From contig OZ024740.1 in assembly GCA_964016885.1 (NCBI GenBank), positions 348,068,001-348,132,000 of the forward strand: a stretch of DNA of 64,000 nt. Direction: 5' to 3'. Source of the stretch: Eledone cirrhosa (taxonomy: Eukaryota). Shown piece after piece: positions 8,374 through 61,883 of the stretch (position 1 is its first letter; the number at the start of each line of letters is the position of its first letter). The translations under genes and the position numbers were made by a program. The notes under the pieces are model-generated. The model made no database searches. It worked only from the letters and a program-made list of their open reading frames with translations, and was not told where the DNA came from.

Positions 8374-10980
<2,607 letters not shown>

Positions 10981-11284
10981 AAATATGTATTAAAAACAAA
11001 TAACGAAACGAAATTAAATTTCGTTTCGTTTGTAACTCACTTTTGTATGACTGACGCTTAAACAATTAAGTTAAAAATGTACATCCACATATGTATACTG
11101 AAATACTAGTATGCATATGAATACACACACGTATACATATGTAGATGTACCGAGTTTTTCACTGGTCACTTTACTGTGAGTGTCCAGCTATTCTGTATGT
11201 AAACACACAGACAAACCGGTTTTTAGAGTCATACTGGTTTTTGAGGAAACACCTTTCCTCTATTCTCCAGAAAGCCAGATAAGG

Positions 11285-11329
11285 AATATTGAACTAGTTT
11301 CGTTGTTGTTACAACTCATCAGCAATATT
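11285..11329 (-). ncRNA. Hammerhead ribozyme, family A
   Basis: aatattg CTGATGA gttgt aaca acaac GAAA ctag TT caatatt. Confidence 0.9.
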
Positions 11330-11750
11330 TACCTATCTTCCGGCCTTTCTAGAGAATCGTAAAAGCACATATCGTTATATGCTTTTTCTATGAAAATTAG
11401 TAGTGGGCAGACTAATTTGCATAGAGCGTGAGTACGTACCGGTTCAACGGAGACGATAAAAACAAATAACGAAACGAAATTAAATTTCGTTTCGTTTGTA
11501 ACTCACTTTTGTATGACTGACGCTTAAACAATTAAGTTAAAAATGTACATCCACATATGTATACTGAAATACTAGTATGCATATGAATACACACACGTAT
11601 ACATATGTAGATGTACCGAGTTTTTCACTGGTCACTTTACTGTGAGTGTCCAGCTATTCTGTATGTAAACACACAGACAAACCGGTTTTTAGAGTCATAC
11701 TGGTTTTTGAGGAAACACCTTTCCTCTATTCTCCAGAAAGCCAGATAAGG

Positions 11751-11795
11751 AATATTGAACTAGTTTCGTTGTTGTTACAACTCATCAGCAATATT
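11751..11795 (-). ncRNA. Hammerhead ribozyme, family A
   Basis: Identical motif, +466. Confidence 0.9.
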
Positions 11796-12012
11796 TACCT
11801 ATCTTCCGGCCTTTCTAGAGAATCGTAAAAGCACATATCGTTATATGCTTTTTATATGAACATTAGTAGTGGGCAGACTAATTTGCATAGAGCGTGAGTA
11901 CGTACCGGTTCAACGGAGACGATAAAAACAAATAACGAAACGAAATTAAATTTCGTTTCGTTTGTAACTCACTTTTGTATGACTGACGCTTAAACAATTA
12001 GGAAGATAGGTA

Positions 12013-12057
12013 AATATTGCTGATGAGTTGTAACAACAACGAAACTAGTTCAATATT
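12013..12057 (+). ncRNA. Hammerhead ribozyme, family A
   Basis: Identical motif on the plus strand. Confidence 0.9.
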
Positions 12058-12383
12058 CCTTATCTGGCTTTCTGGAGAATAGAGGAAAGGTGTTTCCTCA
12101 AAAACCAGTATGACTCTAAAAACCGGTTTGTCTGTGTGTTTACATACAGAATAGCTGGACACTCACAGTAAAGTGACCAGTGAAAAACTCGGTACATCTA
12201 CATATGTATACGCGTGTGTATTCATATGCATACTAGTATTTCAGTATACATATGTGGATGTACATTTTTAACTTAATTGTTTAAGCGTCAGTCATACAAA
12301 AGTGAGTTACAAACGAAACGAAATTTAATTTCGTTTCGTTATTTGTTTTTATCGTCTCCGTTGAACCGGTACGTACTCACGCT

Positions 12384-12420
12384 CTATGCAAATTAGTCTG
12401 CCCACTACTAATTTTCATAG
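12384..12420 (+). promoter_or_regulatory. Inverted octamer pair upstream of hammerhead (family A; one per unit)
   Basis: CTATGCAAATTAG tctgcccacta CTAATTTTCATAG; ATGCAAAT at 12386, 100 nt before the core at 12486. Confidence 0.5.
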
Positions 12421-12478
12421 AAAAAGCATATAACGATATGTGCTTTTACGATTCTCTAGAAAGGCCGGAAGATAGGTA

Positions 12479-12523
12479 AATATTGCTGATGAGTTGTAAC
12501 AACAACGAAACTAGTTCAATATT
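12479..12523 (+). ncRNA. Hammerhead ribozyme, family A
   Basis: Identical motif. Confidence 0.9.
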
Positions 12524-12942
12524 CCTTATCTGGCTTTCTGGAGAATAGAGGAAAGGTGTTTCCTCAAAAACCAGTATGACTCTAAAAACCGGTTTGTCTG
12601 TGTTTACATACAGAATAGCTGGACACTCACAGTAAAGTGACCAGTGAAAAACTCGGTACATCTACATATGTATACGTGTGTGTATTCATATGCATACTAG
12701 TATTTCAGTATACATTTGTGGATGTACATTTTTAACTTAATTGTTTAAGCGTCAGTCATACAAAAGTGAGTTACAAACGAAACGAAATTTAATTTCGTTT
12801 CGTTATTTGTTTTTATCGTCTCCGTTGAACCGGTACGTACTCACGCTCTATGCAAATTAGTCTGCCCACTACTAATTTTCATAGAAAAAGCATATAACGA
12901 TATGTGCTTTTACGATTCTCTAGAAAGGCCGGAAGATAGGTA

Positions 12943-12987
12943 AATATTGCTGATGAGTTGTAACAACAACGAAACTAGTTCAATATT
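12943..12987 (+). ncRNA. Hammerhead ribozyme, family A
   Basis: Identical motif. Confidence 0.9.
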
Positions 12988-13956
12988 CCTTATCTGGCTT
13001 TCTGGAGAATAGAGGAAAGGTGTTTCCTCAAAAACCAGTATGACTCTAAAAACCGGTTTGTCTGTGTGTTTACATACAGAATAGCTGGACACTCACAGTA
13101 AAGTGACCAGTGAAAAACTCGGTACATCTACATATGTATACGTGTGTGTATTCATATGCATACTAGTATTTCAGTATACATATGTGGATGTACATTTTTA
13201 ACTTAATTGTTTAAATATGTATTATTATCTATAAAAGGCAGATTTTTGTGTCTGTATGTGTTTCAATTTTATACATTTACACAATTCCAAAAATATTGAA
13301 TGAATAATTAAGCAGAATGTTTACTAATATTCTAACTTGGGTCATGGGCAAACTTATTGGGTAAAAAATGCCATAATTACGGAAAAATCGATTTATTTCA
13401 ACAATCGATGATTTCTCCTCTCTCATATGATATACGTTTCCTATATCTACTCCCTTCATCACCTCCCCTTAAAATTGCTACCTTCTCTTATAAGTGTTTG
13501 TGAAAAAGAGAAACATTGAAAAAAAACATATACACACATATATGTGGGTGCATACACACACATATATGTTGGTATGGTTACGATTGACGTCATAGAAACA
13601 GGAACGCGGGAATTTCAATCAATCAACGCATACACAGTTTGTTTTAGCTCCATTTCGAAGCTGACTTTCATTTACTAAACTGTAAGTTTTTCAATCGGCC
13701 TTACACTTTCAAACTATATTTTTCTGTATAAGTAACTTTAACCCTTTATTTTCGACATAAAAATACACACATACATACAAATACCTGTAAATTTTTTTGG
13801 GGGGCATTTTTACATTCAATTATCAGCCTTATATTTTCAAAGTCAATTTTTATGTTGAAGTAACATACATACATACATACATACATACATACATACATAC
13901 ATACATACATACATACATACATACATACATACATACATACATACATACATACATAC

Positions 13957-14560
13957 ATGGTGGCTGCCAACTCGTTTTCGAGTACGGCCACTACTTTATA
14001 TCCATGTAAGAGAACTCTTACCGATACGCTTAACGAGTGTGACGTTTTAGTCCAGCCAGCGACTTGAAAACTCTGGTACAAACAGTGTGACAATTATTGA
14101 CACATAGTGCTGGGCTCATGTTACCATATGACGACAAGTGTAGAGAGATATCCAGATATAAAGCAATGCCTGTGCCGTGAAGCTTTTATAGTGAGTAAAG
14201 GCACTGCACAAAGCCAGTCCCACTCTCTTAACCAAGATGATATTTACCAAAAAGAAGTACAAGTCAACATCATTGGATACCATCAGGGTTGCAGGTGTTA
14301 TATCAGAGTTTTCCTTCTCCTAGAATTCTGCCTTGACAAAAGCTAAGGGGTCATCTCTCCTGGTGATTTTGGATGGCCATTGACTCTTAAGAGCTCCTTT
14401 GGCCTTTGACAGGTTTTTTTTTTGTCCTGCAGGATGTCCAAAGTCACCCTCCTCACCAAGAAACCTTGGTGGGGTAGCCAGTTTAGTCGCCAACGACCCG
14501 ACCATGAGACAGTTTGTACTGGGATACATGTTACCAGTAGCACCAACTGGTGACCTGACA
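13957..14560 (-). mobile_element. ~600-bp RTE-derived non-autonomous retroelement nested in the Helitron
   Basis: Reverse complement of the copies at 39043-39605 and 44349-44960; flanked by (CATA)n. Confidence 0.75.
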
Positions 14561-14600
14561 TACATACATACATACATACATACATACATACATACATACA

Positions 14601-14632
<32 letters not shown>

Positions 14633-15099
14633 CATACATACATATACACACATACATACAAATACCTGTCACTTAATTTACACACACATCGGCCTTACAC
14701 TTTCATACACACATACATACATATACACACATACATACAAATACCTGTCACTTAATTTACACACACATCGGCCTTACACTTTCAAACTAAATTTTTCTGT
14801 AGAAGTAACTTTAACCCCTTCTTTTCGACATAAAAATACACACATACATACAAATACCTTAACATTTTTTTGGGGGGTCTTTCTTATCAATCTTTTTACA
14901 TTCAATTATCAGCCTTATACTTTCAAAGTCAATTTTTATGTTGAAGTAACTTTCACCCTTTATTTTTCGATACCCATTTACTTACTAACATTTGTATCAC
15001 AACAACAATAACAATATTCATAAACAGACAGTAGAATTTCAAAGTCAATTTTTCTGTAGAAGTAACTTTCACCCTTTCTTTTGGACATAAAATACCACC

Positions 15100-15810
15100 T
15101 AAAAAGAGAAGTCACCTCAGTCGACATACCGCGTCAGCAGTGGCGCAAAAGGCTACTATAGCAAACGAGTCCTCTGAGGAAAATGCTTCAAGACTTTCAC
15201 AGACAGCCTTACGTTCAGCAGAATGTAGAGCCGCTGAAAGTTACCAACAGCGCACCGCACGCCTAGCCAAAATGGCTTCATACCAGGCTTCTTCCAGGGC
15301 TTCAGAGAGCCGGGAACAAAGGTGGAAGCGCCTGGCTAGAAACGATGCGACTAATGCTGCTTCCAGGTCTTTGGAACGTTTAAAACAACGGACCGCTCGC
15401 CTTCCTACGAACGCTGCGGCTATGACTACTTCCATGTCCTCTGAAGATGCAGACGGGCGGTCCATTAGCATTGCAAATGTTGCTTCTGCTATTGCTGCCA
15501 GACCTTCCCACCAACCACACGACCAATGTTCTACGTTCAAGCGTAACAGTCGACGGCGAGAAGCTGCACGCGATGTGACGAGCCCCAACACAGCCCTTAC
15601 TGGCACCTACGGGCTTTCAAGTATGAGCAAAACGTTAATTACTCGATGCGCTCTGACATAAATATAGGCGAGATGCGCTTCAATTGCCAATTCTGCAATG
15701 CTACAAAGTGGGCTGGGGAGCCACCTGCAATGTGCTGCTTAAACGGTAAGGTCACCTTGCCCCCTCTTCTGGAACCGCCAGAGCCTTTGAAGGAACTACT
15801 GACTGGTTAT
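15100..15810 (+). pseudogene. Helitron RepHel N-terminus (E/R-rich repeats + Cys cluster)
   Basis: ESSEENASRL/ESREQRWKRL repeats; frameshifted IGEMRFNCQFCNATKWAGEPPAMCCLNGKVTLPPLLEPPEPLKELL. Confidence 0.8.
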
Positions 15811-15849
15811 ACCTCAAGGTGAAAAAAAACAAACCCTGATCCCCCAATA

Positions 15850-17116
15850 AAAAACGCTCCTGGGGTACCGGAAAAACTTTTGTAACGAATTTGATTCTCG
15901 CTAAGATTCGTCAGGAGAAAAAAGTTGCGTTGTCCGTTGCATCGTCCGGGATCGCTGCTACTTTGCTGCCGGGAGGCAGGACAGCACATTCAACCTTTAA
16001 ACTCCCTTTGGATTTAGTAAAAACTGAGACACCAACATGCAATATCAGCAAGAGTTCACACAAAGCTCTGGTACTCAAAAGATGTTGCCTCATTGTTTGG
16101 GATGAGTGCACAATGGCACACAAGGGTTCCCTTGAGGAATCGGACAGGGCCCGGAAAGACATTAGGGATTCTACGGCTCCTATGGGTGGCGTAACCCTTC
16201 TGCTATCAGGGGATTTTCGGAAAACGCTGCCTGTCATCCCCAAATGGACAAGAGCTGATGAAGTGCGTGCCTGTCTTAAGTCGTCCATGTTGTGGCTCCA
16301 GGTGAATAGTTTGTACCTGAGCACAAATATGCGTGCTCATTTGCATGGTGACAACATGTCTGCAGCACAGAACATTTTAGCACTTGGTGAGGGCAAGATC
16401 CCTGAGGATGACAAGGGCGGCATAGCAATCGACACCCTGTGCAACATTGTGAGCAGCCCTTCTGACCTTTGGGAAGCAGTTTTTCCTAATGTCTCATCTA
16501 ACTTTAAAAACCTCCATTGGCTCAGCGAAAAAGCCATCCTTGCTACGAAAAATACCATGGTTAATTTTATTAACGAGCAGCTGATTGAGAAGATTCCCGG
16601 TAAAGAGCACATCTTCAAATCAGACCCCGACGATATCGTTAATTATCCGGTTGAGTTATTAAATCTCCTTGAGCCCCCAGGGCTCCCACCTCACATTATT
16701 AAGCTTAGTGTTGGCTGTCCCATTATGCTAATAAGGAACTTGCGTCAACCAAAGCAGTGCAACGGTACTCGCATGGTCGTCAAGTCACTGACACCCACTT
16801 GATTGAGGCCACCATTGTAACGGGGTGCGGAAGAGGAGAGAATGTTTTCATTCCAAGGCTGAACCTTTTCCCCTCGGCGTCAGATATCCCGTTCGATTTC
16901 CGGCGATCCCAATTCCCGGTGAGACCATTTTTTGCCATGTCCATTAACAAGTCACAAGGGCAAACATTGTCGGTGGCGGGCATCCATTTAGGGGAGCGAT
17001 GCTTCTCCCATGGCCAACTTTATGTTGCCTGTTCCCGCGCAGGGAGCAGGAATGGACTTTTTGCTTACTCTCCTCAAGGGATGACACGCAATATCGTCTA
17101 CAAAGAGGTGCTATAG
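15850..17116 (+). pseudogene. Helitron PIF1-like SF1B helicase domain, frameshifted
   Basis: APG-GTGKTF, VASSGIAATLL, IVWDECTM, SGDFRKTLPV, LIRNL..CNGTR, AMSINKSQGQTL, SHGQLYVACSR; frameshift near 16800. Confidence 0.93.
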
Positions 17117-21306: not shown

Positions 21307-21613
21307 TGAAACAAAATGAAAACGAAATTTCATTTCTCACTCTTAGTATGGCACTTACTTAAATGTAAGTATGCATGTATACGTACATACATATATGTAT
21401 ACAGACGTACAGTAGCATGCACATATATATATATATATATATACATATATACATACATATGCATACAGGTACACATACATATATGCACGTATCAGTTTAG
21501 CGGCGCTTATTATAAAGTCGCTTTGTTCGTTTGTAAACAAACTGAACAGCCTGAATTTATGCCATACGGTGTTAAGGCAACCACGTCACCTTTTTGTTCA
21601 ACACTGACACAGG

Positions 21614-21658
21614 AACGATGTACTAGTTTCAAGCTTGTTAGCTATCATCAGCACCGTT
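21614..21658 (-). ncRNA. Hammerhead ribozyme, family B
   Basis: aacggtg CTGATGA tagct aaca agctt GAAA ctag TA catcgtt. Confidence 0.88.
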
Positions 21659-21704
21659 TACCCATCTGCCAGATAGTTGAACGTTCGAAAGTATATACTT
21701 TCCT

Positions 21705-21741
21705 TATGAAAATTAACGGCTGAGCAGCCTAATTTGCATAT
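21705..21741 (-). promoter_or_regulatory. Inverted octamer pair, family B
   Basis: Minus: ATGCAAATTAGGCTG ct CAGCCgtTAATTTTCAT; 88 nt before the core. Confidence 0.5.
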
Positions 21742-22087
21742 TGAGTGAGTTAAATCGGTCAGGCATACCGAAAACGATAAATTGAAACAAAATGAAAACG
21801 AAATTTCATTTCTCACTCTTAGTATGGCACTTACTTAAATGTAAGTATGCATGTATACGTACATACATATATGTATACAGACGTACAGTAGCATGCACAT
21901 ATATATATATATATATACATATATACATACATATGCATACAGGTACACATACATATATGCACGTATCAGTTTAGCGGCGCTTATTATAAAGTCGCTTTGT
22001 TCGTTTGTAAACAAACTGAACAGCCTGAATTTATGCCATACGGTGTTAAGGCAACCACGTCACCTTTTTGTTCAACACTGACACAGG

Positions 22088-22132
22088 AACGATGTACTAG
22101 TTTCAAGCTTGTTAGCTATCATCAGCACCGTT
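22088..22132 (-). ncRNA. Hammerhead ribozyme, family B
   Basis: Identical motif, +474. Confidence 0.88.
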
Positions 22133-24577
22133 TACCCATCTGCCAGATAGTTGAACGTTCGAAAGTATATACTTTCCTTATAAAAATTAACGGCTGAGCA
22201 GCCTAATTTGCATATTGAGTGAGTTAAATCGGTCAGGCATACCGAAAACGATAAATTGAAACAAAATGAAAACGAAATTTCATTTCTCTCGCTAAACTGA
22301 TACGTGCATATATGTATGTGTACCTGTATGCATATGTATGTATATATGTATATATATATATATATATGTGCATGCTACTGTACGTCTGTATACATATATG
22401 TATGTACGTATACATGCATACTTATATATATATACTGTTTGCGATCAAATATGATTTGGCTATGCTGGGTATTGGGTTGTTGTGAGAGTGTTAATTTCTA
22501 GAAGGTGTAGAATAAGTAGCTAGAAGCAAATCTAGGCATGTGAGAGGAAATAGAAGCAGTGTGAGAAAATGGAGGAGGAAACGTGAGATTGTCATAAACT
22601 ACCGGTCGCCAACCGGTGGTTCGCGGACTACAGGTGATCCGCAGAAAAAACTTGATGTATTTATCTTTTTTTTTTTAATTCATATTATTGGTCTTTGAGA
22701 TCCGGACATTTGACGACCGCTGACATAAAGGGTTGTATTCAAAAGTTTGAAAAGTTTCTAGATTTAAATCCATAGAAAAATGAGAACACTCATCGATAGA
22801 ACAACTGTTAAAACAGCCAAATGCTGTCAAAGAGATGTGAAGTTCGAAATATAAAAGTACATATACTTTTCTGACTGCGTGCGCATACATGCGTTTAAGA
22901 ATGTGTGTAAATGTATTAGCTGTTTTAAGTACAGTGTTATCTTTATGACCTGAAAGGAAATGAATAGTCATTCCTCTTCTTTTCGATGAAATGTATTCGA
23001 AAGTCTTACTGGTATCAGTTTTGTTGATATAGTGGAAAACATTACACCATAGTTCTTGGCTGTATATTGTTTCTTTTTATGTTGTTTTTGTTCGTATTAT
23101 AGCACCCGAGTAGAATCTTCGTATTTGACTTGTGGATATGTACAATATATAAATAGTAGAAAAAGAAACAACATTTCTCTTTAGAAATAAATACATTCTC
23201 TGTCCATTGATGGGAGAGATTTGATTCATTGATTTTCCGTGCTCGGAATTTTGAAAGAAATGTTGATTAACTTGCAGTAAATCTTACAATAAATATTTAC
23301 CTAACTGTTCGATAGAACAGATTTCAATCAGATATTTTCGTTTAGCAATTACTTTTTTAAATATTTCTTCATTTTCTTTATTACCTACATTTCAATTCGT
23401 ACTGTGTATATGCTAGAATGATTTCTATACCGTGTCGTTTTTGTTACACGAAAGAATAAATCTATAGTTATCTATCTGCCACGATCAAAACATTTTGAAT
23501 GTGTTGTGCTATCATTTATATGGCTAATATTTCTCCTTTCTACTTTGTTTTCATCACATTTCAACTATGAATTCTTGCTAATTAATCTACGCTGAATATT
23601 TATTTATTTCATGCAATTTCTACTTGTGTTTATTGTACAGATAACAATTTCTCCTACATTAACTCCTATTTCAAAGAGTACACTTTACAAAATTTATGAT
23701 AGCCTAGGGATGATTTATATATTTCCAATATTTTGATGATCAGTTCAGCAATATATGTTTATATATACAATTAATGCTACGATCAAATTAAACTTTCAGC
23801 TTTCTCTGATCAAAATTAAAATTTAATTGACAGCGTTATATTGAAATTAAGTATAAAAGCACAACTACAATATTTTATTGGGTATTGAGTTTCATGCATT
23901 CGATTAATCTCTTTTAATATCTGCGTATTCTATAAATATATCTAACACATAATAAAAACATTTTTTCCAAATAATATCTAATTGAAAATATCATGAAGTG
24001 TGACCTAAAACCATGAATGATAACAATGGCCATTTATCTAACTGGCAAACACTCACTTAGCATAACTAAAGAGAAAGCTTCTACGCAGTTACACGATCTC
24101 CAAGAAACACCGACCAAATATTCCTCATACAGATTACATTACATAATATATGAAGAACACACATTAGTTAATGTGATCGTAGATAAACTATACCCAGAAT
24201 ATGACGGTATTCACAGCAGAAATAATTTTGATCATAGTTCTCTGCGCTAAACGTTAAACTTTCACAAACAACAAACTTTCCCACTGAAAGCATCCTGAAC
24301 GTAAAACTTCGACTTAGTAGAATGGTGTACAATGTATTTATTAAAGATCATGGTTCAGATATCATGATGATATCTGATATATTAAATCTGAATTGAGGCA
24401 TTACGATAATATTACCTTCCTTGTTCTTACAACGCAATTACACTAATTCAATATATATGTATATGTGTGTGTGAGAGTGAGTGTGACTGTGTCTATGTGT
24501 GTGCATGTGAGTGAGTGTGAGTGTGTCTATGTGTGTGTGTGCGTGTGTGTGTGCGTGCGCGCGCGCGCGCGCGCGTG

Positions 24578-26351: not shown

Positions 26352-26398
<47 letters not shown>

Positions 26399-26465
26399 TA
26401 TATATAATATATATATATATTAATTCAAAATAATTAACAAAAATAGATATTCATGTGATCAAGTA

Positions 26466-26532
26466 TATTTTATTATACATATTTCAGAGGTACTGAGCTA
26501 TCTTCAAAAGTACGTCCTCATCAGATAAAATA
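26466..26532 (-). ncRNA. Type I hammerhead ribozyme
   Basis: Mirror of 26621-26687. Confidence 0.82.
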
Positions 26533-26620
26533 AGATGATGCATGACATACCCTGACTTAGTAGATGGTTAAGATTCACTCATAACTAAATCTTAACTATC
26601 TACTAAGTCAGGCATCATCT

Positions 26621-26687
26621 TATTTTATCTGATGAGGACGTACTGTTGAAGATAGCTCAGTACCTCTGAAATATGTATAATAAAATA
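26621..26687 (+). ncRNA. Type I hammerhead ribozyme
   Basis: tattttat CTGATGA ggacgtactg..cagtacctct GAAA tatgta TA ataaaata. Confidence 0.85.
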
Positions 26688-26822
26688 TACTTGATCACAC
26701 GAATGTCTATTTTTGTTAATATTTTGAATTAATATTAATAACTCCGGAAAACCACAGTTGAGTGCTTCCAATCTATTGTAAAACTCATTCTTTGTTTTAT
26801 TCATTGAACCTTGTTTAACCTT

Positions 26823-26875
<53 letters not shown>

Positions 26876-38087: not shown

Positions 38088-38427
38088 AAGTATGTGTGCA
38101 AGTATGTATGTTATTGTATGTGTGGATTTGTATATTTTGATTCGCAAGTGTACTCGAGCATAGGTTTCATATCTATACAGGTATATAAGCAGTTAATACA
38201 TGCAGAATGTTTGGAAAGTTTTACATCTTTGCAGTTCTATTAACTGATTTTACTCCTATCTAGTCGAGTCCTTTTTGGTTCTGCAAAGCCCAGCTTCTGA
38301 ATATTTGTACTGAAGCAGTTAATAATATATCCCTGAGACACAATATTCACAGATATAAATCTGAAAGCATAGTCATGGTGGAGTATTTGTATGTATATAT
38401 GCATGTATCTATGTATGTATGTATGTG

Positions 38428-38711
38428 TGTCAGGTCACCAGTTGGTTCTACTGGTAACATGTATCCCAGTACAACCTGTCCCATGGTCGGGTCATTAGCG
38501 ACTAAACTGGTAACCCCACCAAGGTTTCTTGGTGAGGAGGGTGACTTTGGACATCCTGCAAGACTAAAAACAAAACCTGTCAAAGGGCAAAGGAGATCTT
38601 AAGAGTCATTGGCCATCCAAAATCACCGGGAGAGATGACCCCTTAGCCTTTGTCAAGGCAGAATTCTAGGAGAAGGAAAACTGATATAACACCTGCAACC
38701 CTGATGGTATC
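38428..38711 (+). mobile_element. RTE-derived element, 5' half
   Basis: Matches the first ~285 nt of 44349-44960. Confidence 0.75.
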
Positions 38712-39011
38712 ACACAGGGAATATCTCTCGAGGAGTTCCTTCCCAACTCTCATGATCTGATCTGTTTCATGCAGATAGACTTGCCCGAGATACGGGCTCC
38801 TACGCTTCGAGGTTCGTAGATGTTGTCGGAGAGATATGATGCGACATTCAAATGTTGTTTGGACTGATGTTAGGCCTCTGCCTCCCTGCTTACATTTCAA
38901 GTAAAGGCGGTCTATGTCACTGTTGATTAGGAAGTTTCCGGTGTTCAGTATTTTTCGAGTTCCAACATCAACTGCTCGGATTTCGTCTATCGTCCAAAAA
39001 TCAACAAAACT
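38712..39011 (-). pseudogene. Non-LTR RT thumb-region fragment (R4/Dong-like)
   Basis: WTIDEIRAVDVGTRKIL..NSDIDRLYLKCKQGGRGLTSV. Confidence 0.7.
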
Positions 39012-39042
39012 GTATGTATGCATATATGTATGTATGTATATG

Positions 39043-39605
39043 TGTCTCATGGTCGGGTCGTTGGCGACTAAACTACCAACCCCACCAAGGTTTCTTGGTG
39101 AGGAGGGTGACTTTGGACATCCTACAGGACTAAAAACAAAACCTGTCAAAGGGCAAAGGAGCTCTTAAGAGTCAATGGCCATCCAAAATCACCGGGAGAG
39201 ATGACCGCCTTAGCCTTTGTCAAGGCAGAATTCTAGGAGAAGGAAAACTCTGATATAACACCTGCAACCCTGATGGTATCCAATGATGTTGACTTGTTCT
39301 CTTCTTTTTGGTAAATATCATCTTGGTTAAGAGAGTGGGACTGGCTTTGTGCAGTGCCTTTGCTCACTATAAAAGCTTCACGGCACAGGCATTGCTTTAT
39401 ATCTGGAGATCTCTCTGCACTTGTCGTCACATGGTACCATGGGCCCAGCACTGTGTCAATAATTGTCACAAGTGTAGTGTTTGTACCAGAGTTTACAAGT
39501 CGCTGGCTGGACTAAAAAGTCACACTCGTTCAGCGCATCGGTAAGGGTTCTCCTACATGGATATAAAGTAGTGGCCGTACTCGAAAACGAGTTGGCAGCC
39601 ACCAT
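39043..39605 (+). mobile_element. RTE-derived non-autonomous element
   Basis: CTAGGAGAAGGAAAACTCTGA (RTE 5'UTR-like); [24 protein letters not shown]2H2-like ORF end; CTCG-AAAA-CGAG hairpin; (TGTA)n tail. Confidence 0.75.
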
Positions 39606-39881
39606 GTATGTATGTATGTATGTATGTATAAATTCATGCCGTTCAAGGCGACGTTAGTGTACCATAATGTGTATATATGTGTTACATTCAACGTCCATTT
39701 CACATTATAATTTCATATTTACATCTTTTATTGTATTTGACTACATTGGACAAATATTTCTAAAAGTTATTTCCAATTAACTCATATGCTATTTTTTATC
39801 TTTTGTGATGGAGTTCCTATAGATTAGTACATTGTTATACTCCATTTTGGAGATCCATACTATTGTAAACTGCAATATCAA

Positions 39882-43635: not shown

Positions 43636-43639
43636 TATA

Positions 43640-43677
<38 letters not shown>

Positions 43678-43716
43678 TATATATTTATATATATATATAT
43701 ATATATAAATATATAT

Positions 43717-44333
43717 GTTGGTGCTACTGGTAACAGTTGGTGCTACTGGTAACATGTATCCCAGTACAACCTGTCTCATGGTCGGGTCGTTGGCGACTAA
43801 ACTGGCAACCCCACCAAGGTTTCTTGGTGAGGAGGGTGACTTTGGACATCCTGCAGGACTAAAAACAAAACCTGTCAAAGGGCAAGGGAGCTCTTAAGAC
43901 TCAATAGCCATCCAAAATCACCGGGAGAGATGACCCCTTAGCCTTTGTCAAGGCAGAATTCTAGGAGAAGGAAAACTCTGATATAACACCTGCAACCCTG
44001 ATGGTATCCAATGATGTTGACTTGTTCTTCTTTTTGGTAAATATCATCTTGGTTAAGAGAGTGGGACTGGCTTTGTGCAGTGCCTTTGCTCACTATAAAA
44101 GCTTCACAGCACAGGCATTGCTTTATATCTGGAGATCTCTCTGCACTTGTCATCACATGGTACCATGGGCCCTGCACTATGTGTCAATAATGGTCACAAG
44201 TGTAGTCTTTGTACCAGAGTTTTCAAGTCGCTAGCTGGACTAAAAAGTCACATTCGTTCAGCGCATCGGTAGGGATTCTCCTACATGGATATAAAGTAGT
44301 GGCCGTACTCGAAAACGAGTTGGCAGCCACCAT
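43717..44333 (+). mobile_element. RTE-derived non-autonomous element
   Basis: Near-identical copy; 5' 19-nt duplication of GTTGGTGCTACTGGTAACA. Confidence 0.78.
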
Positions 44334-44348
44334 GTATATATATATGTG

Positions 44349-44960
44349 TGTCAGGTCACCTAGTTGGTGCTACTGGTAACATGTATCCCAGTACAACCTG
44401 TCCCATTGTCGGGTCGTTGGTGACTAAACTGGCAACCCCACCAAGGTTTCTTGGTGAGGAGGGTGACTTTGGACATCCTGCAGGACTAAAAACAAAACCT
44501 GTCAAAGGGCAAAGGAGCTCTTAAGAGTCAATGGCCATCCAAAATCACCGGGAGAGACGACCTCTTAGCCTTTGTCAAGGCAGAATTCTAGGAGAAGGAA
44601 AACTCTGATATAACACCTGCAACCCTGATGGTATCCAATGATGTTGACTTGTTCTTCTTTTTGGTAAATATCATCTTCGTTAAGAGAGTGGGACTGGCTT
44701 TGTGCAGTGCCTTTACTCACTATAAAAGCTTCACGGCACAGGCATTGCTTTATATCTGGAGACCTCTCTGCACTTGTCGTCACAAGGTAACATGGGCCCA
44801 GCACTATGTGTCAATAATTGTCACAAGTGTAGTGTTTGTACCAGAGTTTTCAAGTCACTGGCTGGACTAAAAAGTCACACTCATTCAGCGCATCGGTAGG
44901 GGTTCTCCTACATGGATATAAAGTAGTGGCCGTACTCGAAAACGAGTTGGCAGCCACCAT
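44349..44960 (+). mobile_element. RTE-derived non-autonomous element, full length
   Basis: Tandem neighbour of the previous copy. Confidence 0.78.
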
Positions 44961-44973
44961 ATGTATATATATA

Positions 44974-45212
<239 letters not shown>

Positions 45213-45471: not shown

Positions 45472-45511
45472 TATATATATATATATATTTATAATGTCAT
45501 GTATCATTTTA

Positions 45512-45574
45512 TTTTATCTGATGAAGACGTACTGTTGAACTTAATTCAGTAGCTCTGAAATATGTATAATAAAA
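45512..45574 (+). ncRNA. Type I hammerhead, same family as 26621-26687
   Basis: ttttat CTGATGA agacgtactg..cagtagctct GAAA tatgta TA ataaaa. Confidence 0.78.
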
Positions 45575-45617
45575 ATATAATTGATCACAAGAATATCTAT
45601 TTTGTTAATATTTGGAA

Positions 45618-45669
<52 letters not shown>

Positions 45670-54754: not shown

Positions 54755-54807
54755 ATAAAATATTAAACAAATAATGAATAAACAATTCCTTATATTAAAC
54801 AAAAAAA

Positions 54808-54962
54808 TTCATTATTTAACGATCGTTTCTAGGGTATATATGTGTTATAATTGGTATGCATATTCAACAGATCTATGTACAAAATTATACAAAATTATAC
54901 AAATTATCAAGATTAAATATACATACCTAACACATATATACGCCGTCTTCAGAAATAATGAA
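54808..54962 (-). ncRNA. Hammerhead with very long stem II (mirror copy)
   Basis: Reverse complement of 61545-61699. Confidence 0.75.
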
Positions 54963-55787
54963 GTATATTTATTGATAATAACAACAATTCAAAATATCAG
55001 TTCAAAATTGACCAATGAAAACACAAAGGGTTAAAAGCAGTTCGGTGTGTGTATATACATGTAAAATCCTTACACATATTTTACAAAAATGTGTGTATAA
55101 TTTGTATACGCATACTAAAAAGATGGATGCAAACACAAAATTTCAAGGTTAATATCTCTGTAAGCTTAATGCGCTGATAAGATGCGCATTGATACTTATG
55201 GAGTCAAGCATATAAATATATTTTTTCATACTCACACATATCAGTATAAACACACATACATGCGCGTATATGCATAAATATACACATAACCACGAACATA
55301 CAAACACACACACTCCCCCACTCACATTTATATATGTGGATATAAAATCATAAGCACATAGAAATTAAATCACTCACATAAAACACTGGCACACACATTT
55401 CAAGATCAAGATACAGAAATTAGGTGGGAGGGGGGGGAGGGGTCAGTATTCAATTGTCTGAGCAGACTGCCTAATATAAATGTATCTATAAATTAAGAAA
55501 AATAAAAAAATAAAACAATAAAATATAATAACTATAATATAATATATATACACATACAGATATATAAACACACATACATACATGTACGCACACATAGAGA
55601 TATTTACGCATACACACATACACACATACATATACAGTCATACACACACATACACTTACACGAACATACACATACACATATAAAAAGATATATATATACA
55701 CACACACACACGCGCAACACATACACACATACACATATATATAAAAAAAAATAGATAATAAAGATATATATCCACATATATATACAT

Positions 55788-55836
<49 letters not shown>

Positions 55837-55927
55837 CATATACATATACATACACATACATCTAAATATACATACACATACATACACACATACATGTACA
55901 TACATGTACATACATATACGCACATCG

Positions 55928-55975
<48 letters not shown>

Positions 55976-56318
55976 TCACATAGACATATAGATACATACA
56001 CACACAACTTACATACACACGTATATATATATATATATATAGATGTACCTTCATACATAGAATTAGATATATAATCATACATACATATGCACCTACTTAT
56101 ACTCATATATATAAATACATACGCTTCCATAAATGTGTATATACATAAAAAACAATACAACCTCACCAAACTCAGACATACAAATAAAGATAATAATAAA
56201 AAATAATAATAAAAAGGCATATGTATATACATACACACACGCATTAATAGAGATATATATATATATATACACATACATACACATATATATATACATACAC
56301 ACACACATATACACACAC

Positions 56319-56365
<47 letters not shown>

Positions 56366-56371
56366 TAGACT

Positions 56372-56408
<37 letters not shown>

Positions 56409-56803
56409 ATATATATCCACACACACATACCACCATAAAAACACATACAAACACCCACATGTATATATATATATATATATATATCCATATACACACACGT
56501 ACATATATATACATACATATACATAGATATATATATATACACACACACATAAAAAACAGACATGCACATATATATATATATATATATATTTTATTACTCT
56601 TATATATACACATATTATATATACATACACAACCTCACTTATACACATATACACATAAGTTATATTATAATAATAAAGAATAATATACATATATATATAT
56701 ACATATACATATATATATATATATATATATACATACATACATACACATACATACATACACATAAATATATACATACATAAATACACACATACTAATAAAG
56801 ACA

Positions 56804-57880
56804 TATAATGAAGCTCTAGATAGAAGTGGCCACAAAAATAGATTAGAGTATATACCTTCTACTAAAAATACTGAAAGCATACATCATAATATTACCAACA
56901 AACACCAAATGAAAAGTACACACCTAAATGCCACCCACAATATACCCCAAAATACTAAATCTTCTAATATAAAGTATAGTAACCCTCAAAAAACTACTCA
57001 TCATACAACTATAATAAATATTAATAATAAAACTCCTAATAAAAAAGATAAAACACCTAAATCTACAAATATAACTAAAAATAGTTGTGGTGAGATCATT
57101 AACATTAATCCTCCTAGTAAAAATCATGATACAACCTATAAAAATAATAAAAATAATAAACAACATAGAAACCGTAATAGACGAGTTACTTGGTATAATG
57201 CTCCTTTTAATTTACAAGTTAAGGATAATATTGCTAAAAAATTTTTTTATATCCTTGAGAAAAACTTCCCGCCAAACCACAAATACCATCAAATCTTAAA
57301 TAGGTCTACAGTTAAATTCTCATACTCTACAACAAATAACATAAAACAAAATATAAGTGCATATAATGCATATAAATGTAAGAAAACCATAAGTATACCA
57401 CCAGTACATCAAATTAACAATAATATCTCCTCAAATACAGAATTAACGAAAGGATGTAACTGTAGAAACAAAACAAACTGCCCATTAAAAGGGAATTGTC
57501 TTGTTAACAACATAGTCTATAAATGTAATGTTAAAACTAAAGATTCTATTTGCTCATATATAGGAGCTACCTCTAACAATTTTAAGACAAGGTTTAATAC
57601 CCACAAGCATAGTTTTAAAAATGCCGCACTGGCTAATACAACATCTCTAGCAGAAAAAATCAATAGTTATAAAAATAAGAATATAAAATATGATTTGACC
57701 TGGAGTGTGCTCAAAAGAGCCACCCCTTATCAAAATAATAGAAAAGAATGTAGATTATGTTCCCAAGAACTATTTGAAATAATGAAGTCTAAGGATATCT
57801 TATTAAATAAACGACAGGAATTAATTATATCGTGTAATCATAAACTAAAAAAAACATTTAAATATTATAAACCTAATTAA
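56804..57880 (+). CDS. PLE polyprotein C-terminus: RT thumb end, Cys-rich linker, GIY-YIG endonuclease (5'-truncated)
   Basis: In-frame YNEALDRSGH from 56804; RRVTWYNAPF, NRSTVKFSYS, CNCRNKTNCPLKGNC, IVYKC..YIGATSNNFKTRFNTH, CRLC, LLNKRQEL; no internal stops. Confidence 0.88.
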   Translation, partial: YNEALDRSGHKNRLEYIPSTKNTESIHHNITNKHQMKSTHLNATHNIPQNTKSSNIKYSNPQKTTHHTTIININNKTPNKKDKTPKSTNITKNSCGEIININPPSKNHDTTYKNNKNNKQHRNRNRRVTWYNAPFNLQVKDNIAKKFFYILEKNFPPNHKYHQILNRSTVKFSYSTTNNIKQNISAYNAYKCKKTISIPPVHQINNNISSNTELTKGCNCRNKTNCPLKGNCLVNNIVYKCNVKTKDSICSYIGATSNNFKTRFNTHKHSFKNAALANTTSLAEKINSYKNKNIKYDLTWSVLKRATPYQNNRKECRLCSQELFEIMKSKDILLNKRQELIISCNHKLKKTFKYYKPN

Positions 57881-58420
57881 TAACATTATTCTAGAAATTA
57901 ATTTAATTTAAATGTTAGTTAACCTATAAATTTAATTTAATTAATATTTTATTACAGATGAGAAAATATTATGTAATCATAAATTGTGAAAAACCTTTAA
58001 ATATTACTAATATATACTTAGTAATTTAATTTATAGATTAATTTTAATTTATTTAAACCTTTTATTTTATTATAATTCTTTTACAGATAAAATATAGCAA
58101 AATAATATCATGTTTCCAATGACGGAGAAATAATTTTTAGTATTATAGACATAATTAATATACATTTTGGAAATATATTTATTATTTGGTTTTAGTTTTA
58201 ATCAACCTAAAAATTTTAATTTTAATTTGCTTAAAATTAGTATCCTTATACAGACGAATTGCAGAATGTCATGTAATCATAGAATGGGATGTGTTTTGGA
58301 TATATACCTAGTTAATATATTCTGTGCAATTTTTTGAAAAAGATATGTATATGTATATGTGTATGTATATGTGTGTGTTGTGTATGTGTATCTGTATGTA
58401 TGTATGTATGTGTATATGTG

Positions 58421-58461
<41 letters not shown>

Positions 58462-59599
58462 ATATGTATGTATATGTGTTGTATGTATATGTATATGTAT
58501 GCGTATTAATTTTGATTTCTATTTGCATATAATTATATTATGCTATTGATGAAATACAATATCTGCTTTATGTATTGTATACCTAATTAACATATACTAA
58601 TTAACGTATACTATTGAAATAAATATATAATTTTTAATTTAGTTAACATATAATTTATATGCTACTACCGATGTAATACTTTATTTTATTTTTATTTGGG
58701 TTTCTTTTCCCTATTACTAAATTCATCTCCTAATATTGATACCATAACGTTATTAACTTTAATTTAGTTATACTGTAATTAATAATCTACTACTGTTTGA
58801 CTTCAAAATTCTGCTTCAAATATTATAAACCTAACTAATTTACACCTTAGAAATCAATATGTTGGCTATCTTTGGTTTAGTTAACATATGATTAATGGTA
58901 TACTTATTTATTTTGAGATGCATAGATTTCGTATTTCCTAGCACTGAAAATATGTAAGAACATACATTGAATTAAGATACGGAAAATATTATATGTTTCT
59001 TGAAACATATATTTACTTTGATCCCCTTCTCCAAACCCCCCCTTTCCCCCATACTATTATCATCTGTATTTGTAAGCATCTATGTATGAATATATATGTA
59101 GGTAGGTGTCTATATAGGTTTGGGTATTTATATCTAAATATAAAAATACATATATGAGCATGCAAATATGAATGTAAGATTGTGTGTGTATATATGATTG
59201 TACATACATATGTATGTATATATATGTATATATATGCATTATATATGTGTGTGTATGTGAATGTGTTGTATGTATATGTGTATGTATGTGTATATATGTG
59301 TATGTATGTGTATGCTTGTATATATATGAATATATATATGTGTATATATGTATGTATATGTATATGCGTGTATGTATGTATGTGTATGTGTGTTGTGTAT
59401 ATATATGTATGTCTCTCTATTTATATGTTTATCTTCGTATCTATGTGATATATGTGTGTGTGTGTGCACGTATGCATATGTATGTGTTTGTGTGTGTTTG
59501 TATGTGTGTGTGTATATATGTGTATGTGCGCACACACACATACACATATATATATATATATATGTGAGTGTGTATGTGTGTCTGTGTGTGTGTGTGTGT

Positions 59600-59650
<51 letters not shown>

Positions 59651-60091
59651 GATATATATATATATATATATATATAGGTGTCTATGTGTGAATATATGTC
59701 TTTATTAGTATGTGTGTATTTATGTATGTATATATTTATGTGTATGTATGTATGTGTATGTATGTATGTATATATATATATATATATATATGTATATGTA
59801 TATATATATATGTATATTATTCTTTATTATTATAATATAACTTATGTGTATATGTGTATAAGTGAGGTTGTGTATGTATATATAATATGTGTATATATAA
59901 GAGTAATAAAATATATATATATATATATATATGTGCATGTCTGTTTTTTATGTGTGTGTGTATATATATATATGTATGTATATGTATGTATATATATGTA
60001 CGTGTGTGTATATGGATATATATATATATATATATATACATGTGGGTGTTTGTATGTGTTTTTATGGTGGTATGTGTGTGTGGATATATAT

Positions 60092-60130
<39 letters not shown>

Positions 60131-60136
60131 AGTCTA

Positions 60137-60179
<43 letters not shown>

Positions 60180-60522
60180 GTGTGTGTATATGTGTGTGTG
60201 TATGTATATATATATGTGTATGTATGTGTATATATATATATATATATCTATTAATGCGTGTGTGTATGTATATACATATGCCTTTTTATTATTATTTTTT
60301 ATTATTATCTTTATTTGTATGTCTGAGTTTGGTGAGGTTGTATTGTTTTTTATGTATATACACATTTATGGAAGCGTATGTATTTATATATATGAGTATA
60401 AGTAGGTGCATATGTATGTATGATTATATATCTAATTCTATGTATGAAGGTACATCTATATATATATATATATATACGTGTGTATGTAAGTTGTGTGTGT
60501 ATGTATCTATATGTCTATGTGA

Positions 60523-60570
<48 letters not shown>

Positions 60571-60661
60571 CGATGTGCGTATATGTATGTACATGTATGT
60601 ACATGTATGTGTGTATGTATGTGTATGTATATTTAGATGTATGTGTATGTATATGTATATG

Positions 60662-60718
<57 letters not shown>

Positions 60719-61544
60719 ATGTATATATATGTGGATATATATCTTTATTATCTATTTTTTTTTTATATATATGTGTATGTGTGTATGTGTTGCGCGTGTG
60801 TGTGTGTGTATATATATATCTTTTTATATGTGTATGTGTATGTTCGTGTAAGTGTATGTGTGTGTATGACTGTATATGTATGTGTGTATGTGTGTATGCG
60901 TAAATATCTCTATGTGTGCGTACATGTATGTATGTGTGTTTATATATCTGTATGTGTATATATATTATATTATAGTTATTATATTTTATTGTTTTATTTT
61001 TTTATTTTTCTTAATTTATAGATACATTTATATTAGGCAGTCTGCTCAGACAATTGAATACTGACCCCTCCCCCCCCTCCCACCTAATTTCTGTATCTTG
61101 ATCTTGAAATGTGTGTGCCAGTGTTTTATGTGAGTGATTTAATTTCTATGTGCTTATGATTTTATATCCACATATATAAATGTGAGTGGGGGAGTGTGTG
61201 TGTTTGTATGTTCGTGGTTATGTGTATATTTATGCATATACGCGCATGTATGTGTGATTATACTGATATGTGTGAGTATGAAAAAATATATTTATATGCT
61301 TGACTCCATAAGTATCAATGCGCATCTTATCAGCGCATTAAGCTTACAGAGATATTAACCTTGAAATTTTGTGTTTGCATCCATCTTTTTAGTATGCGTA
61401 TACAAATTATACACACATTTTTGTAAAATATGTGTAAGGATTTTACATGTATATACACACACCGAACTGCTTTTAACCCTTTGTGTTTTCATTGGTCAAT
61501 TTTGAACTGATATTTTGAATTGTTGTTATTATCAATAAATATAC

Positions 61545-61699
61545 TTCATTATTTCTGAAGACGGCGTATATATGTGTTAGGTATGTATATTTAATCTTGA
61601 TAATTTGTATAATTTTGTATAATTTTGTACATAGATCTGTTGAATATGCATACCAATTATAACACATATATACCCTAGAAACGATCGTTAAATAATGAA
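61545..61699 (+). ncRNA. Hammerhead with very long stem II
   Basis: ttcattattt CTGAAGA cggc gtatatatgtgtta..ggtatg....catacc..taacacatatatac ccta GAAA cgatcg TT aaataatgaa; 10-bp stem I, palindromic AACGATCGTT. Confidence 0.78.
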
Positions 61700-61883
61700 T
61701 TTTTTTGTTTAATATAAGGAATTGTTTATTCATTATTTGTTTAATATTTTATCTTGACTCTGTATACCGTTTGTCTTTCACCGAAAGTGGATTTTCATTG
61801 CATCTCTTCTTTCCATGATATCCGGAATACATTGAGTTCTTCATACGGATTGGACACTACCGTAAACTCTTGGTAGATTTATC

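Follow-up and report, generated by a model that had tools for sequence, protein, structure and literature searches.

Non-LTR retrozymes have been described from metazoans such as coral, mussel and axolotl and, as far as the accessible part of Cervera and de la Pena (2020, PMC7229834) presents them, they are dispersed tandem repeats with a type I hammerhead in each unit, no open reading frame (ORF), low GC content, target duplications of more than 4 bp and a self-paired predicted circle, in genomes that also contain Penelope-like elements (PLEs). These features are shared by the repeat analysed here, referred to as Family A, one copy of which lies in a window of 64,000 nt from Eledone cirrhosa. 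Its unit of 466 nt is slightly above the 150–450 bp given for retrozymes in PMC7229834 and falls inside the range of 51–972 bp for non-LTR retrozymes, and its weak palindromic stem III is as in the amphibian ribozymes and unlike the invertebrate ones described in that paper. The fixed ends, divergent arms, (TA)n targeting and putative editing marks of Family A have no counterpart in the accessible part of PMC7229834, where circles are given as the main RNA form of the retrozymes tested and a circle together with a PLE enzyme was put forward as a hypothesis in 2020. The vertebrate non-LTR retrozymes, treated as PLE derivatives by Li, Clavereau and Pollet (2026, 10.64898/2026.07.22.740005), are likewise non-autonomous, PLE-linked and found together with Neptune-type PLEs. 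In the available text of that study the evidence consists of co-occurrence and pLTR homology, and local tandem amplification is suggested, whereas the link of Family A to PLEs rests on insertion anatomy, with no pLTR homology found among 32 PLE loci, and the data speak for tandems being formed in the course of reverse transcription.

PLE insertions contain partial tandems, an inverted 5'-truncated copy and a tail of 30–40 bp at one end, often in (TA)n (Craig 2021, PMC8557442), and the purified anole PLE nicks AT-rich DNA in vitro, extends both strands and starts reverse transcription at two internal sites of the RNA, the spacing of which equals the tail (Frangieh 2024, PMC11167929). According to the available parts of these two papers, two start sites, a one-sided tail, extension of both strands, AT-rich or (TA)n targets, an inverted truncated copy and a hammerhead in the repeat would all be common to PLEs and Family A; unlike PLEs, Family A has no ORF, a tail of 69–74 nt instead of 30–40 and arms that are multimers of one short unit. 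The non-autonomous Chlamys elements, e.g. MRC1, are also PLE-mobilised and form multicopy head-to-tail insertions in microsatellites, but as described in the available part of PMC8557442 hammerheads are lacking in most Chlamys, and the non-autonomous elements resemble their autonomous partner at the 3' end, neither of which is true of Family A. Newt satellite 2, a likeness by description, is also a tandem type I hammerhead repeat with a weak palindromic stem III, for which dimeric cleavage (PMC7229834) and an snRNA-type promoter (PMC2220036) are reported. The class of element is already known, the testable features of non-LTR retrozymes and of PLE-mobilised elements being present here with the exception of homology to a partner, for which 32 PLE loci were compared. 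Within the available text of the literature searched, no paper was found that analyses retrozyme ends, inversions or editing, and retrozyme mobility had been backed by co-occurrence and repeat homology only.

When run through TRF the array gives a period of 466 nt with 2.2 copies (10991–12000) and one of 464 nt with 2.6 copies (12001–13214), both at 99% identity, and the differences among units across 2.2 kb amount to four one-off substitutions plus one 2-nt deletion. Near-identical units, five identical intact hammerheads spaced 466/464 nt, several internal hairpins and an absence of coding capacity had been described in an earlier note on this DNA, and the description is confirmed: the hammerheads are identical across core and stems, a hairpin was located in the tail, and no ORF of at least 120 aa was found inside the array. 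The flip in orientation was also correctly placed, but the head-to-head inversion proposed by the note is corrected to divergent arms, with the ribozyme strand facing outwards in both and their 5' parts meeting at the flip; the end of the element moves from 13215 to 13214. Its description of the array, sound overall, had missed a target-site duplication, the 13-bp sequence of which occurs just twice in the whole window and the left copy of which borders a tract of 2.6 kb rich in (TA)n (8374–10990). Features are collected in Table 1, where 12001–12466 serves as the reference unit (numbered u1–466, predicted cut after u50) and T and P denote the two fixed outer ends.

Table 1. Features of the Family A array and its borders, in window coordinates; cut sites and the promoter element are predictions.
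Feature	Position	Strand	Remarks
Target-site duplication, left copy	10980-10992	+	13 bp; 2 nt common with element end
T arm	10991-12000	-	2.2 units, u274 to u351 of ribozyme strand; outer end is fixed site T (u350-352)
One-sided tail	10991-11058	-	u284-351, 68 nt, between the two fixed ends
Hairpin in tail	11002-11030		29 nt, 13-bp stem
Hammerhead, type I	11285-11329	-	CUGAUGA at 11322; predicted cut after GUU at 11292
Octamer ATGCAAAT, other copy	11415-11422	-	
Hammerhead, type I	11751-11795	-	CUGAUGA at 11788; predicted cut after GUU at 11758
Octamer ATGCAAAT, other copy	11881-11888	-	
Strand flip	12000/12001		Inner, 5'-truncated ends of the two arms meet bluntly
P arm	12001-13214	+	2.6 units, u1 to u284; outer end is fixed site P (u278-283 family-wide)
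Hammerhead, type I	12013-12057	+	CUGAUGA at 12020; predicted cut after GUU at 12050
Octamer ATGCAAAT	12386-12393	+	Candidate snRNA-type promoter element
Hammerhead, type I	12479-12523	+	CUGAUGA at 12486; predicted cut after GUU at 12516
Octamer ATGCAAAT	12850-12857	+	Candidate snRNA-type promoter element
Hammerhead, type I	12943-12987	+	CUGAUGA at 12950; predicted cut after GUU at 12980
Target-site duplication, right copy	13212-13224	+	13 bp; 3 nt common with element end

Every tandem unit carries a type I hammerhead (5/5 cut-site passes in the window), and the three cut sites of the plus strand are predicted at the same GUU positions as in the earlier note. Stem I consists of 7 bp, stem II of 5 bp and stem III of 2 bp with a 2-nt palindromic loop. 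The hammerhead descriptor gave no match in any of 20 block-shuffled windows, and a search with Rfam gave no match to the array at gathering score. In the predicted lowest-energy fold of the isolated hammerhead the core is paired and the stem III with its 2-nt loop is not formed; with two pairs and a 2-nt loop in stem III, the monomer is accordingly predicted to adopt a lowest-energy fold other than the active one. Two copies of the motif can pair through the palindromic stem III, with a predicted duplex of -8.2 kcal/mol, and on this modelling dimeric cleavage is plausible. The circular unit is predicted to be highly self-paired (-157 kcal/mol compared to -92 ± 5 kcal/mol for 40 shuffles). Between loci none of the 11 core positions of the hammerhead varies, compared to 118 of 392 others (p 0.02), while after insertion the core mutates at a rate similar to that of other positions; the stem II pair u28/u39 reads T-A at 36 loci and A-T at 49, a compensatory change that is probably one event, and the cut triplet is either GUU or GUC. 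From this pattern the templates seem to need a working ribozyme. The octamer ATGCAAAT is kept in the sister Family B, and by analogy with newt satellite 2 an internal snRNA-type promoter built on this shared element is possible in Family A.

A search of the 3.0-Gb genome returned 4,843 matches to the exact 45-nt hammerhead and 9,252 to a degenerate 33-nt version, the reversed-pattern control being zero for both, together with 2,276 T ends (u350–352 followed by TATA) and 835 P ends, the latter on the plus strand alone as the minus-strand count was inflated by overlapping matches. The dispersal, youth and lack of coding capacity claimed for the array are supported by the genome-wide analysis, and the counts rule against a single-locus occurrence. 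The first 97 of 100 T ends listed were taken and 95 kept, leaving out L093 (a duplicate of L092) and L104 (T arm too short for mapping); six of the 95 ran past the sequence retrieved, which leaves 89 complete loci, for which the T end was the sole basis of selection. No LTR architecture was found in the 95 loci, and the family has G or C at 168 of 466 positions.

A T end combined with an inverted P end was found at 70 of the 89 complete loci, 59 with an inverted arm ending at P and 11 with an inverted P fragment of 8–17 nt; the short fragments were counted without a chance control and excluding them the figure is 59/89. In five more loci the inverted arm ends elsewhere than at P and in 14 there is no second arm, so that some inverted part is present in 75/89 and the P end is missing in 19/89. 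The P ends fall into three registers, u278 (23), u280 (18) and u283 (20), together 61/70, and these are the positions at which the unit offers T or TA for target pairing. The P site lies about 70 nt upstream of T, corresponding to a family tail of 69–74 nt. As T ends were selected for TATA, the test of a (TA)n target rests on the P ends, where 57/59 arms continue into (TA)3 or more; 42 of the 59 loci lie in pure (TA)n and are hence uninformative on target duplication, which at the present locus measures 13 bp. Among the first 100 hammerhead matches every flip is minus-then-plus. The inner ends of the arms are spread over the unit and are joined by short overlaps or small insertions, and more than one unit is contained in 52/93 T arms and 35/64 P arms, one arm having at least 31 units. 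There was no clear correlation between the lengths of the two arms (rho 0.22, p 0.10, n=58). Termination by Pol III at T runs was rejected as an explanation of the ends: read-through is seen in most arms, the P site is 8–13 nt beyond the T run, and runs of five T are lacking in Family B. A transcription start at u463–464 was likewise discarded, the three T arms that end at 464 being within chance.

The genome contains 10,596 GIY-YIG candidates, of which 150 were scored. Among 32 PLE loci, 17 of the 21 ORFs examined show an intact cysteine linker before the C-terminal endonuclease and are hence of the Neptune type, the kind linked to microsatellite targeting. Autonomous EN+ PLEs are present, with ORFs of up to 1096 aa combining RT with GIY-YIG at the C-terminus, and one group is 96–98% identical. 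In this small sample, none of the 32 PLE loci (of 10,596 candidates) carries sequence homologous to the unit or to its ends, directly or via a pLTR; other repeats in the PLE loci of this genome have one-sided tails of roughly 35–95 nt as judged by eye. At one of 96 Family A loci a short PLE ORF fragment abuts the T arm, and eight more have PLE ORF matches in the flank examined. The array itself is not an autonomous PLE, as an RT/GIY-YIG ORF is absent. Mobilisation by PLE machinery, as had been suggested from the inversion, is supported by the two fixed ends, the one-sided tail, the inverted arm, the (TA)n target and the target duplication, in a genome with abundant Neptune-type PLEs.

The two arms of a locus resemble each other far more than they resemble the rest of the family. 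In 65 two-armed loci the median divergence between arms is 0.46% within the locus compared to 4.65% to the arms of other loci, at 50/65 loci no other arm is closer than the partner arm, and 83/98 rare multi-copy alleles are common to both arms. One array of 20 units and 9.2 kb has no differences among its units and nine variants versus the family, all in both arms, and multi-copy minority variants are rare. As a side observation, assembly polishing could inflate homogeneity within arrays, while a long-read assembly cannot create a strand-biased excess of A>G.

Such an excess is found among the rare variants that are unique to a locus and fixed in it, which on the ribozyme strand comprise 21 A>G and four T>C, compared to 24:26 for one-off variants (Fisher p 0.003; 113 loci). 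With the 95 T-end loci alone the difference weakens (19:4 vs 22:18, p 0.03), and if only strictly private variants are counted it is not significant (11:3 vs 20:22, p 0.06). At the fixed A>G sites the 5' neighbour is U in 12/21 cases and G in one (p 0.015), and the sites cluster: at one locus three edits are shared by all 19 copies across the two arms, and at another there are eight. The edited sites show no excess in paired regions compared to other adenosines (p 0.23). For ADAR a 5' U is a common neighbour and a 5' G a rare one, and cephalopods are a group with heavy RNA editing. Direction and context support RNA editing as the likely origin of the A>G marks, short of proof; errors that RT or RNA polymerase made in a previous generation could become fixed in all units as well. 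If a change made in one RNA appears in every unit of both arms, a single-unit template would have been read repeatedly. The question of a circular or a multimeric template, left open in the earlier note, is narrowed in this way, the data favouring one monomer copied repeatedly over a multimer on the basis of homogeneity, A>G bias and seamless junctions.

The cut site is read through in 70/93 T arms and 49/64 P arms, and the junctions are seamless, within-locus differences at u41–60 amounting to 0.31% compared to 0.33% overall (287 passes, 82 loci). Since a working ribozyme is seemingly required and the cut leaves no scar, ligation would be the simplest account. An unlikely alternative is that the template is the cut but unligated linear monomer, its ends held together by stem I, and that the PLE enzyme jumps the nick precisely in each round. 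This would account equally well for arms of a single haplotype, for the fixation of edits and for the requirement of an active ribozyme, and a mild excess of inner ends just 3' of the cut (16 vs 8.9 at u51–77; p 0.02, the window being picked post hoc) is in its favour, so that part of the templates may be linear. As a rule, jumps between templates are imprecise. A nick crossed in every round sits poorly with this and with an arm of at least 31 units, and also with the 287 passes made without extra insertions, deletions or substitutions and with the prevalence of circles among the tested retrozymes of PMC7229834.

It is quite improbable that the PLE enzyme copied long linear multimers, left uncut after transcription from a small number of homogeneous source arrays, with no circle involved, even if several observations fit. 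In the available part of PMC11167929 hammerhead cleavage is dispensable for the anole PLE in vitro and the substrate that predominates is RNA left unprocessed, and ribozyme-free non-autonomous PLEs also yield multicopy head-to-tail insertions (PMC8557442, as available). Within Family A, two haplotypes alternate in both arms of L069, and of the 181 variants fixed in a locus among the first 29 loci, 150 are shared subfamily alleles. Edits on a multimer would however be expected to be patchy among units, and in the younger half of the loci A>G is fixed 21 times (T>C twice) and occurs as a minority allele only six times in 188 units; the catalytic core, moreover, is kept between loci though it mutates after insertion.

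A further reading, which is very doubtful, holds that short PLE-type insertions were expanded and homogenised later at the DNA level by unequal crossover and gene conversion between arms, a route suggested in the available text of 10.64898/2026.07.22.740005. Dimer or trimer periodicity was seen in three loci, and the patterns of L051 and of the L055 P arm can be explained by one later duplication. Against a general role stand the frequency of arms longer than one unit in both classes, with no separate short and long classes beyond a mean that exceeds the median, the rarity of multi-copy minority variants, the sharing of one haplotype and period by both arms and the strand-biased A>G, which requires an RNA stage.

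In L1 twin priming the inner end of one arm lies near the outer end of the other. Such an inversion, or an assembly artefact, is the least credible origin of the flip and has next to no probability: at the present locus no more than 11 nt separate the inner end u274 from the opposite arm's outer end (u284), which fits by coincidence and fails across the sample, where inner ends of T arms are scattered over the whole unit while P is fixed, and no piece from four DNA runs aligned to the array and its right flank spans the junction of the present locus, but the target duplication is intact and contigs of an independent run of very high depth include 14 further flip joints as well as T ends that continue into (AT)n. 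These contigs back the architecture of the family. Near-identical pieces were also present in two DNA runs labelled as other organisms (depth about 188 and 10–17), for which low-level contamination seems likelier than transfer.

We consider it probable that the array is a recent insertion of a non-coding hammerhead repeat of the non-LTR retrozyme kind, written by a PLE enzyme into a staggered AT-rich break, with both arms derived from one edited monomer that was probably a circle. An array would be transcribed, perhaps from the internal octamer-containing promoter, and the hammerheads would cut the multimer, probably as dimers, after which the monomer would be ligated and some of its adenosines edited by ADAR. 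The PLE endonuclease would nick both strands about 8–13 bp apart and each 3' end would prime reverse transcription, at T in one case and at P in the other, with 1–3 nt of TA pairing assisting; each enzyme would then circle the template for a variable length, and joining of the two cDNA ends by microhomology or small insertions would produce the flip. At little better than even confidence we favour the fuller proposal of a double-primed rolling-circle retrotransposition, in which (TA)n would be nicked by a pair of PLE enzymes that begin at two fixed positions on a single circular, ADAR-edited ribozyme RNA and, from both sides, travel round it as many as 30 times, with the result that edits would become fixed and heritable in every unit and drive the evolution of the family.

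With thousands of young insertions, Family A presents the two-start-site footprint of PLEs on a template without an ORF; the insertions define the two start sites to within a few bases, and both cDNAs can be traced to one RNA. The family supplies a substrate for in vitro work and is relevant to the way in which PLEs give rise to tandem and inverted structures. Should the A>G marks prove to be edits by ADAR, changes made in RNA are being transferred back into the germ line.

A second hammerhead family, Family B, lies in the same window, and its unit is homologous to the 466-nt unit of Family A at ~62% identity. The two families share the same architecture, which in Family B consists of a T arm of 2.1 units on the minus strand and an inverted P arm of 135 nt (T and P being the fixed outer ends of the arms), with a tail of ~60 nt and with (TA)n flanking the array. 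The octamer, an 8-nt candidate snRNA-type promoter element, and the region of the 29-nt hairpin within the tail are common to both. Further arrays are present in the loci L173 and L174. With Family B set aside, seven hammerhead motifs were found outside Family A across the 64-kb window, where other repeats are also present (see table). The STPR repeats and PIF1 helicase frame are consistent with a Helitron fragment. The three sites of the dispersed repeat are 91–94% identical to each other.

Features of the window other than Family A
Feature	Position	Remarks
Family B array	21307-22424	T arm on -; 474-nt hammerhead unit
Hammerhead-bearing short insertion	26396-26826	two-armed; tail ~95 nt
Hammerhead-bearing short insertion	45494-45648	a relative
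Further hammerhead-bearing short insertions	18518, 7946, 201, 62336	
7-kb element	54755-61752	inverted arms of 2 kb, 99% identical
STPR repeats and PIF1 helicase frame	15035-17113	
Dispersed repeat, ~700 nt, three sites	13865-14646, 38383-39629, 43638-45052	

The 7-kb element is likely a two-armed remnant of a Penelope-like element (PLE). It contains a 371-aa frame (56765-57877) without any Pfam match, whose terminal motif is GIY-YIG-like and cysteine-rich. In one PLE family, at locus L167, the 3' region terminates in 14 nt complementary to u4-17 of the Family A unit, the stretch immediately preceding the hammerhead; this sequence complementarity may be due to chance.

Among single Family A loci, both arms of L069 (G000:C2:378452000-378459000) alternate between two haplotypes, the pattern expected from a dimeric template. 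In the 20-unit array of L070 and L042 (G000:C1:30.83 Mb) the octamer is destroyed by three A>G changes in 19 of 19 copies, and eight A>G changes, all fixed, were found in L099. The loci L092 and L093 (G000:C1:55.97-55.99 Mb), 18 kb apart, have identical arm junctions and are probably a segmental or assembly duplication.

The Family A unit is also listed for 20 sequencing runs (X1-X20) coded as 17 organisms. In the contig sets of two runs coded as other organisms (X4 and X9) its pieces are near-identical and of low depth, and the presence of the unit in such runs may reflect contamination, close relatives or horizontal transfer.
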